A stretch of DNA of 64,000 nucleotides from assembly GCA_963752285.1 (NCBI GenBank), contig CAVVXN010000005.1:1376001-1440000 (forward strand), read 5' to 3'. Each line of letters opens with the position of its first letter. Within the stretch, counting starts at the first letter, position 1. The notes below the pieces were generated by a model. The model was not told the DNA's origin. It did no database searches and saw only the letters and a list, made by a program, of their open reading frames with translations. A program made the translations under genes and the position numbers. Of this stretch, positions 1-22,057 are shown in pieces. The stretch comes from an uncultured Planctomycetota bacterium. Its GTDB lineage: Bacteria; Planctomycetota; PLA2; JAEUHO01.

Positions 1-1
1 C

Positions 2-367
2 CTCACGGTCGTGACGTGGGGCGCGATGGTGACCGTCACCGAGGAAGCGGCGAAGAAGGCCGCCGAAGAGGGCGTGGACGTCGAGATCGTGGACCTTCGG
101 ACGATCTACCCCTGGGACGTGGACGCCGTGCTCGAGAGCGTCCGGAAGACGGGCCGGCTGCTGACCGTCCAGGAGGCGCCGCGCACCGGCGGCTTCGGCT
201 CCGAGGTCGCCGCGACGGTCGCCGAGAAGGCGATCGAGCACCTCGAGGCGCCGATCGGACGTGTCGCGGGCTTCGACACGCCCTTTCCCTACGCACTCGA
301 GCACGTCTACAAGCCCGATCGCCAGCGCGTGCTCGCGGCCATCCACTACGTCGCGGCGTGGGCCTAG
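2..367 (+). CDS. 2-oxoacid dehydrogenase E1 beta subunit, C-terminal part (5' truncated by window edge)
   Basis: VEIVDLRTIYPWD...SVRKTGRLL.VQEA...GFGSEVAA...LEAPIGRVAGFDTPFP transketolase C-terminal signature. Confidence 0.93.
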   Translation, partial: LTVVTWGAMVTVTEEAAKKAAEEGVDVEIVDLRTIYPWDVDAVLESVRKTGRLLTVQEAPRTGGFGSEVAATVAEKAIEHLEAPIGRVAGFDTPFPYALEHVYKPDRQRVLAAIHYVAAWA

Positions 368-14303: not shown

Positions 14304-15563
14304 TCAGCGACCGCCCGCGTTGAGGCCGCCGCCGGCGCGGTTCCGGAGGCGCTCGAGGAGGCGCTTCTCGGCCTCGGTCAGCCGCCGGCCGGAGTCGCCG
14401 CGCCGCTCGAGCTCGTTCAGGCCCTCGCGCTCCGGGTTCGCCGTGATCTCGGTCGGCGGCTCGAGCGCTCGGCTGAAGAGGGCGTCCTCGAACGGGTCGT
14501 GCGGGAACACCACGAGGTGGAGCAGCCGCCCGTCGAGGCCCACCGCGCGGCCGCGCGTCCCGTCGCTCGTCCTGAGCAGCAGGGCCTCCCCGAGCTCGCC
14601 CTCGTCGAGGTCGTCGGACCGGTACCGCGCGAGCATCAGGCGCTCGAGGAGCCGCTGCGCCTGCTCCCCGACCGTCGCGAGCGTGGCGTCGGGGTCGTCC
14701 TGGCCGGGGATGGGGATACCGGCCTTCTTGGCACGCAGCTCGATGGCCGCGGCCGCGAACGCATGCCCCTTGAGCATCGGCTCGAACCAGGCGCGGAGCA
14801 GCGCGTTGTCGCCGAAGATGACGAGCGACTGGACGCGCCCGCGCACCGCGGAAACGCCCCCCACCACCTGCTGCTGGGGCTCCTTCGGCTCGGGGAAGGA
14901 AGCGAGCGTCCGCTGGCAGATCACGCAGTACTGCGCGAGGAGATCGGACTGGTTGATCGACACGAGCGACTTGCGCTCGTCCCCGGTGTTGCGGAACTCC
15001 AGGAAGTGCGTGACGAAGATCGGGACGAGGTTCGACGGCGCGCCGAAGAGCGCGTCCTCCTGGAGGTAGGGCGGCGCGAGGACGTTCGAGACCACGAACG
15101 GGGTGGGGAGCTTGCGGATGTCGTCGGTCGAGGCCGCCGGCAGGGTCCGGACCTCGATGGTCTGTCCGGGGGGGAGCACCACGTCGCGCGGGACGAGACG
15201 GTCGCGCTCGCCGCCCTCGACGACGGTGCCGCCGAGGAGCAGGGTGGGCTCGGCCTCCCCGTTCATCACCTCGAGGTCGTAGCGGTGCCGGGGGAACTCG
15301 GGCTCGCGGAAGGAGAGGTGCTTCGTGCGGGTGTCCGCCTTCACCGCGAGCGGTGCCGGCGCGGCGTTCGACACGAGCGGGAAGATCGTCACCTGGTTCG
15401 CCTGGATGCCGCCGCCGAGGTGGATCGACTGGAGCATGCGCTGGGCGAAGTTGAGCCCGTCGTCGGCCTTCGCGCCCCCGTCGCCCGCCCGCGCGGTCGT
15501 GACGCCCGGGGCGAGGAAGAGCAGAAGGGAGAGCAGGGCGAGGCGGGCCGGCGTGCGCGACAT
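14304..15563 (-). CDS. Secreted protein with a DUF6569/ARPP-1-like domain
   Basis: Signal peptide; NQVTIFPL...L.V.N....TLLLGG.VVEGGERDRLV..DVVLPP; later GGVSAVRGRV..L.IFG..LL. Confidence 0.55.
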   Translation of the reverse strand: MSRTPARLALLSLLLFLAPGVTTARAGDGGAKADDGLNFAQRMLQSIHLGGGIQANQVTIFPLVSNAAPAPLAVKADTRTKHLSFREPEFPRHRYDLEVMNGEAEPTLLLGGTVVEGGERDRLVPRDVVLPPGQTIEVRTLPAASTDDIRKLPTPFVVSNVLAPPYLQEDALFGAPSNLVPIFVTHFLEFRNTGDERKSLVSINQSDLLAQYCVICQRTLASFPEPKEPQQQVVGGVSAVRGRVQSLVIFGDNALLRAWFEPMLKGHAFAAAAIELRAKKAGIPIPGQDDPDATLATVGEQAQRLLERLMLARYRSDDLDEGELGEALLLRTSDGTRGRAVGLDGRLLHLVVFPHDPFEDALFSRALEPPTEITANPEREGLNELERRGDSGRRLTEAEKRLLERLRNRAGGGLNAGGR

Positions 15564-15660
15564 GGGACGTCCTCCGCTCGTCATGGTGGCACGCGGGGGA
15601 GGAGGGAGCAATCGAGCGGACCCCGCGGTCCGCCGCCCGCCGCGCCGTAGACTGAGCCCG

Positions 15661-16404
15661 ATGGCGGGAACGGACCACGTCGAGAGCGAGCCCGTCGGCC
15701 CCGTCGTCGCTCTGCTCTCGGGCGGCATGGATTCCGCGGTCGCCGCGGCCGTGGCCCTCGCCGAGGGCCACGTGCTCCACGCGCTCTCGGTGGACTACGG
15801 GCAACGACACGCGGCGGAGCTCGAAGCCGCGCGTCGCGTGGCCGAGCGTCTCGGAGCCGCGTCGCACCGCGTGGTCCGGGTGGACCTCGGCCGCTTCGGC
15901 GGGAGCGCGCTCACCTCCCCGGTGCCCGTCCCGAAGGACCGCGCCGAGGCCGAGATCGGGAACGGGATCCCGGTCACGTACGTCCCGGCCCGCAACACCG
16001 TCCTCCTCGCGCTCGCGCTCGCGGCCGCCGAGGCGAGCGACGCGACCGCGATCGTCGTGGGCGTGAATGCGGTGGACTACAGCGGCTACCCGGACTGCCG
16101 CCCGGACTACCTCGACGCGTTCCGCGAGGTGGCCCGCCTCGGAACCCGCCGGGGCGTCGAGGGACGCCCCGTCGAGATCCGCGCGCCGCTCCTCTCGTGG
16201 TCGAAGGCCGAGATCGTGCGACACGGCACCGAGCTCGGCGTGCCCTTCGCCGAGACGCTCTCGTGCTACGACCCGGTCGCCGGCGCCGAGGGACAGGAGG
16301 GCTGGCTCCACTGCGGCCGATGCGACGCGTGTCGGCTCCGGGCCCGGGGCTTCGCGGAGGCGGGCGTCCCCGACCCCACGGCGTACCAGGCGAGGCCCGC
16401 CTGA
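15661..16404 (+). CDS. queC: 7-cyano-7-deazaguanine synthase
   Basis: LLSGGMDS, YGQRH, GGSALT, TYVPARN, DYSGYPDCR, Zn motif SCY...HCGRCDAC. Confidence 0.95.
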   Translation: MAGTDHVESEPVGPVVALLSGGMDSAVAAAVALAEGHVLHALSVDYGQRHAAELEAARRVAERLGAASHRVVRVDLGRFGGSALTSPVPVPKDRAEAEIGNGIPVTYVPARNTVLLALALAAAEASDATAIVVGVNAVDYSGYPDCRPDYLDAFREVARLGTRRGVEGRPVEIRAPLLSWSKAEIVRHGTELGVPFAETLSCYDPVAGAEGQEGWLHCGRCDACRLRARGFAEAGVPDPTAYQARPA

Positions 16405-16474
16405 GCGGACGCGCGGCGGGCCGCGTGACCGGACGCCCCGCCGAGACGATGGTGGCGAGGCCGAGCGCGTGGAC

Positions 16475-16503
16475 TTGGCAGAGGTACCCCTCTGCCGTAT
16501 GGA
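16475..16503 (+). promoter_or_regulatory. Possible sigma70-like promoter with an embedded 8-bp inverted repeat
   Basis: TTGGCA-N17-TATGGA; GGCAGAGG-tacc-CCTCTGCC at 16477-16496. Confidence 0.35.
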
Positions 16504-16530
16504 TGCCTTCGGTCGGCGGAGACTTCGAAG

Positions 16531-17673
16531 ATGCGCGTGATCATGACGGGGCAGGTCGGCATCGACAAGAAGACCTACCTCGAGGAGGTGGCGCGCCGCG
16601 GCGCGGCCGCCGGTCGGCCGATCGACCTCTTCCACGTCGGCGACCGCATGTACGCGGAGGCGACCGACTTGAGACCGGGACGCATCCTCGACCTGCCCCT
16701 CAGCCGGCTCCACGCCCTCCGGCGCAGCGTGTTCAAGGACATCATGAGCGAGTCCGCCGGCCGCGAGAACGTGATCGTGAACACGCACGCGACGTTCCGC
16801 TGGCGCCACGGGCTCTTTCGCGCCTTCGACTTCGACCAGATCGAGCAGTTCGAGCCGGACCTCCTCATCTGTCTCGTGGACAACGCCGAGTGCGTGCACC
16901 AGCGCCTCGTGTCGGAGCACGCGCTCGACGCGACGCTCAAGGACACGATGGTCTGGCGCGAGGAGGAGATCATGGCGACCGAGCTCCTGGCCCGGGCCGT
17001 CGGCTGCGACCACGCCTTCTACGTCCTCTCGCGGGGTCGTCACCAGAGCACGTCCGAGACCTGCCTGAAGCTCGTCACGGAGCCGGACACGCCCCGGGTC
17101 TACCCCTCCTTCCCCATGAGCCACGTCGTGGACATGCCCGACGTGCTCGCCGAGATCGACGCGTTTCGCGAGATCCTCGGGCGCCACTTCATCTCCTTCG
17201 ACCCCGGGGACGTGGACGAGAAGCTCCTGCTCGAGCGGGCGCTCGCGGCCATGAAGGAGGGCCACGACTTCATCGAGGGGCGCCTCGTCGGCGAGGACGG
17301 GTCCGTCACGACGTTCCCGGTGTCGGTGAAGCAGACCCTCGACTGCGCGCGCGACATCGACGGGCAGATCTACGCGCGCGACTTCATGCTGATCGACCAG
17401 TCCGACATGATCTGCTCGTACATCCCGGAGCTCGAGGGCGGCATGCCGGGGCTCAGCAGCGGCGTCGAGCGCGAGCTCCACCACGCCTTCGAGCACGGCA
17501 AGGAGGTCTACGTCGTCTGGAAACCGGTGCGCAACCCGAGCCCGTTCGTGACCGAGACCGCGACCCGGGTGTTCCGCTCCGTCGAGGAGGCCCTCGAGGA
17601 GTTCGAGCGGCGGGGCTTCTTGACCCGGTCCCCCCCGGCGTCGCGCGTCGGCGCCGAGGACCGGCCCGCCTGA
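16531..17673 (+). CDS. Fusion of an archaeal-type adenylate-kinase-like P-loop domain and a nucleoside 2-deoxyribosyltransferase/NMP-hydrolase-like domain
   Basis: N-term VIMTGQVGIDKKT, VGDRM, VIVNTHAT, PDLLICL; C-term VYPSFPM, ARDFMLIDQSD, SSGVERELHHA...GKEVYVV. Confidence 0.7.
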   Translation: MRVIMTGQVGIDKKTYLEEVARRGAAAGRPIDLFHVGDRMYAEATDLRPGRILDLPLSRLHALRRSVFKDIMSESAGRENVIVNTHATFRWRHGLFRAFDFDQIEQFEPDLLICLVDNAECVHQRLVSEHALDATLKDTMVWREEEIMATELLARAVGCDHAFYVLSRGRHQSTSETCLKLVTEPDTPRVYPSFPMSHVVDMPDVLAEIDAFREILGRHFISFDPGDVDEKLLLERALAAMKEGHDFIEGRLVGEDGSVTTFPVSVKQTLDCARDIDGQIYARDFMLIDQSDMICSYIPELEGGMPGLSSGVERELHHAFEHGKEVYVVWKPVRNPSPFVTETATRVFRSVEEALEEFERRGFLTRSPPASRVGAEDRPA

Positions 17674-19443
<1,770 letters not shown>

Positions 19444-19458
19444 GGGCGGCCGCGCCTC

Positions 19459-21106
<1,648 letters not shown>

Positions 21107-21117
<11 letters not shown>

Positions 21118-22057
21118 GGCGTACCTCCAGCGCTTCCGCGGCGAGGCCCGCGGCGCCGATCATCCCGGCGAGGTCCTTCGCGGCCGACGGCACCACGCAG
21201 AGTCGTCCGCGCTGGACCGGCAGCACGTCCTCGTCGAGGCGCCGCCGGAGCGCGCCCGCGAACGCGTCGAACGAGAGCGAGAGCCCGCCGCCGACGACGA
21301 CGTCCGCCACGTCGAGGATCTTCGCGACGTGCGCGAGGGCCGTCCCGAGCGCCGTGCCGGCGCGTTCGAACGCGCGGCGCGCCGCCTCGTCGCCGCGCGA
21401 CGCGCGCAGGGACGCCTCCTCGGCGTCCACCTTCTCGCCCGTGTCCACCCGGTACGAGATCGAGACCCCGGTGGCCGACGCGTACTGCTCGAGGCAGCCG
21501 CGGTTGCCGCAGCCGCACGGCCGCCCCCCGCGCTCGACGATCAGGTGACCGACCTCCATCGCGACGCCGTGGGCGCCGCGCCACGGCCGGCGGCGGAGGA
21601 CCGCGCCCCCCCCGACGCCCGTGCCGAGCCCGACGTAGAGCAGGTCGTCGGGACGCTTCGGGTGGAGCTGCCACTCGCCCCAGGCGGCGGCGAGCGCGTC
21701 GTTCTCGACGACCACCGGGAGGCCCACCTCCGCGGCCAGCGGTTTGGCGAGGTCCACGTCCTCGAGCCCGGGCAGGTTGGGCGAGCGCGCGAGCTTGCCC
21801 GTCGCCGGGTCGATGAAGCCGGGCACCGCCACGCCGACCGCCCGTGCGTCGGGCGCGCGGGAGAGCGCCGCGCGGATCGCGGCGGCGAGCACCGACACGA
21901 CCAGGTCGCGCGGTCGCTGCGACGGACCGCCCTCGAGCGTTCCCGAGAGATCCACCTTCTCGCGGTGCTCGAACACGACGCGCGTGCCCGCGACCACGCC
22001 CGCGCGCACGAACGTGCCGCCGACGTCGAGCCCGAGGACCGGCGCGGCGTCGTTCAC
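21107..22057 (-). CDS. ROK family sugar kinase (glucokinase-like)
   Basis: GLDVGGT, ENDA, GLGTGVGG, EVGH...CGCGNRGCLE; overlaps the pgi start. Confidence 0.92.

Follow-up and report, generated by a model that had tools for sequence, protein, structure and literature searches.

What is the function of the gene that lies directly downstream of queC in an uncultured Planctomycetota bacterium, and do the two genes act together? The window examined here is a stretch of 64,000 nucleotides of contig CAVVXN010000005.1 (positions 1,376,001 to 1,440,000 of the forward strand; GenBank assembly GCA_963752285.1), with an overall G+C content of ~74%. A first-pass annotation of this DNA had read the gene as a fusion of an archaeal AdkA-type kinase domain with a C-terminal domain of the NDT pattern, and had proposed that it handles 7-deazaguanine nucleotides together with QueC, with the caveat that the link might be incidental. 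Structure prediction of both halves bore out the two domain assignments, and the C-terminal half models as an NDT fold. The proposed partnership with queC did not survive a survey of related loci. From the sequences and predicted structures, we suggest that the protein may be an N-glycosidase of 2'-deoxynucleoside 5'-monophosphates (dNMPs) joined to a non-canonical nucleotide-binding domain, a proposal to which we give about an even chance of being right.

The annotation had placed queC at 15661-16404 and an open reading frame at 16531-17673, separated by 126 nt; these coordinates were correct, and all of the quoted motifs (MTGQVGIDKKT, VNTHAT, YPSFPM, RDFMLIDQSD, SSGVERE and GKEV) were found in the 380-residue protein. 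The features of the fusion gene on which the argument depends are listed below. Residue counts here and throughout refer to an alignment of 64 sequences (A1), which was also the basis of the AlphaFold2 (AF2) model.

16531..17673, + strand: fusion gene with AdkA-like and DNPH1/NDT-like domains, 380 aa, from the reading-frame call and the homologue family
16531..17085, + strand: N-domain, residues 1-185, archaeal adenylate-kinase fold with a degenerate P-loop
16549..16572, + strand: degenerate Walker A, G7-Q-V-G10-I-D12-K13-K14, aligning to GVPGVGKT of 6ln3
16786..16788, + strand: His86, the active-site histidine of archaeal adenylate kinases, His in 61/64, aligning to the AdkA DTH motif
17086..17625, + strand: C-domain, residues 186-365, NDT/DNPH1 fold
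17101..17103, + strand: Tyr191, equivalent to DNPH1 Tyr24, NDT Tyr7 and MilB Phe17, Tyr in 64/64
17380..17382, + strand: Asp284, candidate general acid, equivalent to NDT Asp72 and DNPH1 Asp80, Asp in 63/64
17455..17475, + strand: S309-S-G311-V-E-R-E315, phosphate-binding Ser and nucleophilic Glu by alignment
17539..17541, + strand: Ser337 in a PSPF motif, candidate phosphate-binding Ser acting in trans, Ser in 54/64 and Thr in 2/64

The fusion frame is a real gene, because it belongs to a large family of homologues. A word-indexed search gave at least 5285 homologues with E <= 0.001 among 7999 candidates scored, and an exhaustive search of representatives of clusters at 50% identity gave 913 clusters at E <= 0.001, of which 136 reached E <= 1e-30. 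The best 120 homologues are 66-83% identical to the query across at least 94% of its length. Database names for family members are AAA ATPase or adenylate kinase only, and full-text literature searches found no description of an AdkA-like/NDT-like fusion. The AF2 model of the full 380-residue protein reached a pLDDT of 94.6 and a pTM of 0.91, and a separate model of the C-domain reached a pLDDT of 93.9. Both halves of the protein are conserved to a similar degree, with a mean pairwise identity of 0.334 for the N-domain versus 0.339 for the C-domain. Among sequencing runs, no RNA run was listed for this DNA, and ten DNA runs contained small shares of it. The protein is a real, strongly conserved and unstudied two-domain enzyme, an as yet uncharacterised form of a known type of enzyme.

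The C-domain could be assigned by fold only, because its sequence scores fall below thresholds. Its separate model matched 7o62, the NDT of Desulfotalea psychrophila, with a Z-score of 16.1 (root-mean-square deviation (rmsd) 2.1 A over 132 residues), human DNPH1 (8rpt) with Z 14.8 (rmsd 2.3 A, 131 residues) and the L. leichmannii NDT with Z 12.8, while ~30 further DNPH1/Rcl entries scored Z 13-14. Searched as part of the full model, the same domain matched 7o62 (Z 15.2), 7m5h (Z 14.2), MilB (4ohr; Z 11.7) and the L. leichmannii NDT (Z 11.6), and Foldseek agrees with the assignment. The NDT pattern proposed for this half is therefore upheld by fold, not by sequence. The best structural matches are NDTs. 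Identity to the C-domain is 19-23% for DNPH1 chains versus 12-17% for NDT chains. Conservation is lowest (mean identity 0.215) in an insert of ~47 residues (226-272), modelled as two helices with a beta-hairpin between them.

Residues at the candidate active site are nearly invariant across the family. The motif S309-x-G311-x-x-x-E315 aligns to D92-x-G94-x-x-x-E98 of the 1f8x NDT and to S-P-G-T-H-I-E of BcmB, a CMP glycosidase, and S98 and E104 of DNPH1 have the same spacing as Ser309 and Glu315. Gly311 and Glu315 are present in 64/64 sequences and Ser309 in 60/64 (Ala in 3, His in 1), so that the conserved nucleophilic Glu recognized by the first-pass annotation was correctly identified. An alignment of hidden Markov models (HMMs) sets the RD motif of the family, which contains Asp284, on the NND motif of NDT. 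Ser337 was chosen by spacing: it lies 22 residues past the Glu, versus 24 in DNPH1, directly before helix 338-343. PMC10603095 describes a Y24/D80/E104 triad in human DNPH1, with the phosphate held by S98 and by S128' of the partner subunit; it also states that MilB, with F17 in place of Y24, accepts ribose and that F17Y reverts the preference toward deoxyribose.

The nearest precedent in these residues appears to be DNPH1 (8rpt, 8rps, 4kxm, 8qhr), with which the window protein has in common the fold, the Tyr/Asp/Glu triad and a Ser six positions before the Glu. The NDTs (7o62, 1f8x, PF05014) also have the Tyr, the Asp and the nucleophilic Glu, but their 5'-OH-binding Asp (D92 in 1f8x) is Ser in 60/64 fusion sequences, and a Ser at this position points to a 5'-phosphorylated substrate. 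The invariant Tyr191 points to deoxyribose. This residue set seems to fit DNPH1 better than a nucleoside transferase. Differences from DNPH1 are clear as well: similarity in sequence is under every threshold, the ~47-residue insert and the fusion to a 185-residue AdkA-like domain set the window protein apart, and the helical element of DNPH1 carrying His56/Glu55 could not be mapped on it. The DNPH1-like dimer, and with it the Ser acting in trans, would be carried over to the window protein from the human enzyme.

By analogy, the protein would be a cytoplasmic enzyme whose C-domain cleaves the N-glycosidic bond of dNMPs. Glu315 would attack C1' to give a covalent deoxyribose-5-phosphate-enzyme intermediate, while Asp284 would protonate the leaving base. 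The 5'-phosphate would be held by Ser309 and probably by Ser337 of the partner subunit, and Tyr191 would favour deoxyribose over ribose. The expected products are a free base and deoxyribose-5-phosphate, the latter of which DeoC could split into glyceraldehyde-3-phosphate and acetaldehyde. The N-domain, in which a P-loop Lys/Arg, two Arg residues and the archaeal His persist, may sense a nucleotide, hold the substrate or help to assemble the enzyme.

The N-domain is recognizable by both fold and sequence. Its model matched 6ln3, the archaeal adenylate kinase of Aeropyrum pernix, with Z 21.1 (rmsd 2.1 A, 183 residues), Foldseek found archaeal adenylate kinase at E 1.1e-09, the family profile matched 6ln3 by sequence at E 5.6e-16, and Pfam gave AAA_17 at E 7.8e-12. 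These matches confirm the AdkA-type domain of the first reading. The curated threshold of NCBIfam PRK04040 (archaeal adenylate kinase) was missed, at 28 bits versus a cut-off of 155. Opposite GVPGVGKTT of 6ln3, the family consensus is G-x-x-G-x-[D/N/E]-K-x: position 12 is Gly in 8/64 sequences, position 13 is Lys in 51/64 and Arg in 9/64, and position 14 is Ser or Thr in 10/64. The window protein, with D12 and K14, departs from the canonical Walker A GxxGxGK[ST] at both places. In the profile alignment to 6ln3, the AdkA lid region ARQARDTTRYR faces non-conserved and mostly non-basic family columns. Other residues are kept, among them Arg64 (61/64), Arg143 (63/64) and Glu146 (62/64) in addition to His86. 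A conserved active-site His is described in PMC9635829 as a feature of archaeal adenylate kinases, where it replaces an Arg of the bacterial and eukaryotic enzymes.

Compared with AdkA (6ln3, 7owe, 1nks, 1ki9; PRK04040), the fusion family therefore has the fold, the active-site His and the P-loop Lys but not the Walker A Gly/Thr or the lid arginines, and the window-type domain is always fused to a DNPH1-like domain. Judged by its sequences, the N-domain is degenerate yet under selection, being conserved as well as the C-domain. Because the canonical Mg-ATP machinery is lost, the domain most likely binds a ligand without transferring phosphate, and its role is most likely that of a nucleotide or phosphate sensor or of a substrate-holding or assembly module. 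A bacterial-type, canonical adk is present elsewhere in the genome of the window. The first-pass suggestion that the protein phosphorylates its product is accordingly doubtful, given the loss of the Walker A Gly and Ser/Thr and of the lid arginines, even though the domain itself was correctly named.

The gene is rare in the host lineage and common elsewhere. It was detected in 17/301 genomes of a phylum sample and, within the window's own class (40 genomes, two families), in 4/40, all from three genera of one family; among high-quality genomes of this class it was found in 0/17. In a Phycisphaerae-like class, by contrast, it is carried by 181/201 genomes that are at least 90% complete, and the titled records with the closest homologues carry the labels Phycisphaerae, Phycisphaerales or Phycisphaeraceae. 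In a maximum-likelihood tree of 32 rows, the four sequences from the window's class group together (support 100/99) as sister to the other-class family f69 (100/98), and their clade is nested in f3/f42/f113/f115 (96/98) and f102 (98/92). Once five rows of unknown taxonomy had been dropped, a tree in which the 18 other-class rows are monophyletic was rejected by the approximately unbiased (AU) test (p 0.0013, log-likelihood difference 31); the group tested is a taxonomic one, but it was named after the first tree had been seen, which tempers the result. The tree points to an old horizontal acquisition of the fusion gene by the window's lineage from the Phycisphaerae-like class. The gene is present in one copy in the window's genome. 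Its G+C content is 0.689, versus 0.72-0.77 for its neighbours, and its G+C content at third codon positions (0.976) is neighbour-like, so that the transfer would be old, with no sign of recent import.

More distant full-length homologues (30-34% identity) bear the NCBI names Nitrososphaeria/Aigarchaeota and Thermoprotei. A metagenome scan with seven archaeal-named sequences recovered 172 relatives among 411 matched stretches. The 80 archaeal-like loci that were kept have a median G+C content of 0.47, with Cdc6/Orc1 and archaeal-type ribosomal protein genes in the neighbourhood of the fusion gene. The archaeal branch has the same catalytic residues and the same degenerate P-loop. The fusion may plausibly have arisen in archaea.

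A recurrent neighbour of the fusion gene in the Phycisphaerae-like class is deoC. In 10/40 fetched loci, the next gene downstream is a deoC on the same strand that passes the TIGR00126 cut-off, separated from the fusion gene by -12 to 240 nt; by family, the adjacent loci number 7/11 in f88, 1/2 in f63, 1/1 in f111 and 1/1 in f114. Because four of the f88 loci had been picked as already known to be adjacent, the fair count is 4/18 families. The flanks beyond the pair differ, with pabB, a class IV aminotransferase and NIF3 in f88, and glycogen phosphorylase and a Kelch-repeat protein in f111. At the genome level, deoC scored above the curated cut-off in 89/101 genomes of the Phycisphaerae-like class. 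Phosphopentomutase, DeoB, is the classical source of deoxyribose-5-phosphate, the substrate of DeoC. Its gene was found in 0/101 of these genomes and not in the window's genome, while a control search was positive in 6/14 references, so that DeoC in this class appears to be without its classical supplier.

In the window's own class, deoC is present in 4/4 fusion-bearing genomes. The four genes (G000:C2:359375-359998 and L243-L245) form a clade of their own (94/98) that does not join the f69 deoC, and transfer of deoC together with the fusion gene, which we considered, is therefore unsupported. This clade is distinct from a divergent deoC type in fusion-less relatives of the same family.

We then considered whether the position next to queC carries any meaning. 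The two features concerned are as follows.

15661..16404, + strand: queC (7-cyano-7-deazaguanine synthase), Pfam QueC E 1.2e-67, TIGR00364 190.3 bits versus a cut-off of 150.3, stop codon TGA at 16402-16404
16405..16530, + strand: intergenic gap of 126 nt between queC and the fusion gene

The proposal was that the fusion protein and QueC make, salvage or clear 7-deazaguanine (preQ0/preQ1) nucleotides by swapping or removing a base and phosphorylating the product. In its favour, the two genes share a strand with 126 nt between them, queC first, and two related genera have this same order. A precedent for the chemistry is the phage NDT-family enzyme DmtZ, which hydrolyses dAMP and can also transfer deoxyribose-5-phosphate to the unusual base Z (PMC12884076). 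A base swap on nucleotides thus has a natural counterpart, as the first-pass annotation had supposed, but the tie to queC and 7-deazaguanine does not stand. The top 80 related loci were fetched from species genomes, and 65 of them include 1 kb or more upstream of the gene. The fetched flanks contain queC in 2/80, namely in the two closest relatives (80% and 77% identity). The 78 other fetched loci, mostly labelled Phycisphaerae, have no queC nearby. The fusion gene is carried by 181/201 Phycisphaerae-like genomes, and it reached the window's lineage by transfer. Three relatives without the fusion keep queC in unrelated contexts; they have no synteny around queC in common, and a clean insertion site could not be demonstrated.

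The queC of the window is the only full-length copy in the genome, and it belongs with tgt, queD and queF, whose best matches are scattered elsewhere in the genome, in line with the earlier remark that none of them is in the window (queE was not searched for). Together these genes are an ordinary tRNA-queuosine set. An Rfam search of 15300-18200 at E <= 1 matched no family, a preQ1 riboswitch included. The gap itself contains a promoter-like pair, TTGGCA (16475-16480) and TATGGA (16498-16503) separated by 17 nt, which lies 28 nt 5' of the ATG of the fusion gene and whose function is putative; a sigma-70 consensus scan found no site under its own rule. The possible promoter suggested earlier for the gap is visible as this sequence pair, which counts against the 7-deazaguanine proposal. 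The spacer of the pair also holds a perfect 8-bp hairpin, in which 16477-16484 pairs with 16489-16496; genome G302 has at the same place a similar TTGGCAGG...CCTGCC / TTGGCAGGC...GCCTGCC element with different stem letters. Given the 2/80 loci, the scattered que genes and the lack of an Rfam match, the adjacency of queC is an incidental local accident and not part of a queuosine pathway, as the caveat of the first reading had allowed. queC is an upstream neighbour outside the system of the fusion gene. The 7-deazaguanine proposal is largely refuted by distribution already, and we give it hardly any credence.

Several points count against the dNMP N-glycosidase proposal. Its substrate, its sugar preference and the choice of hydrolysis over transfer are drawn from homology alone. 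Pfam Nuc_deoxyrib_tr (PF05014) scores the C-domain at 11.9 bits versus 28.8 (E 0.25). A profile built from the C-terminal parts of 24 diverse homologues and the window protein (alignment A3) was searched against the PDB, and its matches to solved NDT and DNPH1 chains are not significant (E 0.06-2). The equivalence of Tyr191 was read from offsets of aligned ranges (C-domain model 1..179 to DNPH1 18..162; C-domain model 2..179 to NDT 2..148; full-length 186..363 to MilB 12..161), not from a residue-level superposition. In the N-domain, Lys/Arg13 (60/64), His86, Arg64 and Arg143 are retained, so that some phosphotransfer chemistry is possible. The deoC evidence has its own limits. Adjacency is missing from 30/40 fetched loci and from all of the 80 closest and 80 archaeal-like loci, and also from the window, whose genome has deoC on contig C2. 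There is no phyletic coupling, with deoC in 78/87 fusion-bearing versus 11/14 fusion-less genomes, and nine fusion-bearing genomes that are at least 90% complete have no detected deoC. Finally, the absence of deoB is no proof of a pathway hole (other pentomutases and deoxyribokinase were not searched for).

These points leave room for other functions. The one that deserves most attention, while still unlikely, is a bifunctional enzyme in which the N-domain transfers phosphate by means of a non-canonical P-loop, acting on a substrate or product of the C-domain such as a dNMP. The N-domain is conserved as much as the C-domain, it keeps Lys/Arg13 in 60/64, His86 and Arg64 each in 61/64 and Arg143 in 63/64, and its fold is very near that of AdkA with bound ATP and AMP (6ln3, Z 21.1). 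An active kinase is harder to reconcile with a Mg-binding Ser/Thr in 10/64, a Gly before the Lys in 8/64, non-conserved lid arginines, an NCBIfam adenylate kinase score of 28 bits versus 155 and a canonical adk already in the genome. A second possibility concerns the fate of the intermediate, which might be passed to another free base (dNMP + base' -> dN'MP + base), so that a phosphodeoxyribosyltransferase would rebalance or salvage dNMPs in the manner of DmtZ. The family's hydrolases and transferases have the retaining mechanism and the residue set in common, the structure that fits the C-domain best (7o62, Z 16.1) is that of a transferase, and a designed phosphodeoxyribosyltransferase, 4hx9, is among the matches. 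The activity of DmtZ (PMC12884076) shows that transfer on nucleotides occurs in nature; according to the same paper, DmtZ of Z-genome phages is sometimes fused to dUTPase. DmtZ thus resembles the window protein as an NDT-family dNMP enzyme of the prokaryote world that at times has a second nucleotide-metabolism domain, but it is phage-encoded and dAMP-specific. The adjacency of deoC in 4/18 families better fits release of free deoxyribose-5-phosphate, and we regard transfer as the main activity as improbable. We place at the same low level a more elaborate version, in which a hexameric, archaea-derived pool balancer would use the retained NMP site of its degenerate adenylate-kinase domain to read the adenylate or dNMP pool and would gate either DNPH1-like hydrolysis, feeding DeoC, or DmtZ-like transfer.

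The enzyme could also act on ribonucleotides (NMPs), as a nucleosidase under nucleotide control that yields ribose-5-phosphate, analogous to AMP nucleosidase, PpnN or MilB. Controlled NMP nucleosidases of this kind invite comparison with Amn and PpnN, and a regulatory nucleotide-binding domain would suit control of the NMP pool. MilB and BcmB (4ohr, 4jen), which are CMP and hydroxymethyl-CMP N-glycosidases, are stand-alone enzymes of antibiotic gene clusters. These bacterial NMP glycosidases have the fold and the S-x-G-x-x-x-E motif in common with the fusion family (4ohr Z 11.7; 4jen the best match by profile, E 0.06). Against an NMP substrate, DNPH1 chains outscore MilB, the recurrent neighbour is deoC and not a ribose-phosphate enzyme, and Tyr191 is invariant where MilB has the Phe whose change to Tyr (F17Y) shifts preference toward deoxyribose (PMC10603095). 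We rate this reading as slightly more doubtful than transfer. Far less credible than any of these is a non-metabolic role, whether as an anti-phage or nicotinamide adenine dinucleotide (NAD)-cleaving, TIR-like effector or as a catalytically silent ligand sensor. A bacterial TIR protein is among the structural matches (8fz9, Z 10.2), and the nearest protein-atlas clusters are phage NDT-like families with scores of 0.85-0.86 (the C-domain scores 0.85-0.89 against NDT-like clusters), which we treat as a lead and not as evidence. The catalytic residues of NDT and DNPH1 are invariant, PADLOC (2023 library) matched 0 families at E <= 1, and a search of viral contigs with the single protein gave no relative. 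These two negatives, the single copy per genome and the near-universality in one class make a role in defence less likely, as does a neighbourhood of housekeeping genes. The pattern as a whole would suggest a housekeeping gene.

If the protein is a dNMP N-glycosidase, as we favour, it would be a DNPH1 counterpart that has its own nucleotide-binding domain, the first of its kind from cellular prokaryotes, and it would explain the supply of deoxyribose-5-phosphate in lineages that have DeoC and lack DeoB. Were the pool-balancer version to hold instead, the protein would provide a cellular interconversion of deoxynucleotides without ribonucleotide reductase; in some Thermoproteota and in the Phycisphaerae-like class it would also stand in for the nucleoside phosphorylase/DeoB route that is missing there. 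For the window itself, the queC neighbourhood has no pathway meaning.

Other neighbours of the fusion gene were recorded in the related loci. Among the 75 of the 80 closest loci that include at least 1 kb of downstream sequence, truA lies no more than 300 nt downstream in 20, and floA, ispF, glycerate kinase and murD were found near the fusion gene in fewer loci. We read this neighbourhood as lineage synteny and not as an operon. A cluster of 109-residue proteins, examined as a possible partner, was rejected as an antisense reading frame of truA. NrdH-like glutaredoxins serve ribonucleotide reductase. In 28/80 archaeal-like loci (L123-L202), a protein of ~86 residues with a glutaredoxin fold but without CxxC is encoded divergently upstream, at a median distance of 134 nt (for example L126:4350-4607, - strand), and 3/6 members checked pass the Pfam Glutaredoxin cut-off. 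Another nucleotide-metabolism neighbour, a gene with a NUDIX domain, follows the fusion gene after 11-18 nt on the same strand in 6/80 of these loci (for example L154:7090-7518).

In the window, the fusion gene is followed by a glycolytic cluster at 18148-22057, for which the Pfam check covered enolase only.

18148-19440, + strand: enolase, Pfam-checked
19459-21117, - strand: glucose-6-phosphate isomerase, from the list of reading frames
21107-22057, - strand: ROK-type glucokinase-like reading frame, from the list of reading frames

On the other side of queC and divergent from it, the - strand encodes at 14304-15728 a protein of 474 residues in which Pfam recognizes an ARPP-1 domain (PF20208, E 2.4e-16). 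With the start as called, this reading frame shares 68 nt with the 5' end of queC, so that one of the two starts is probably wrong. The ARPP-1 gene is kept in genomes G301 and G302, ~3.5 kb from queC.

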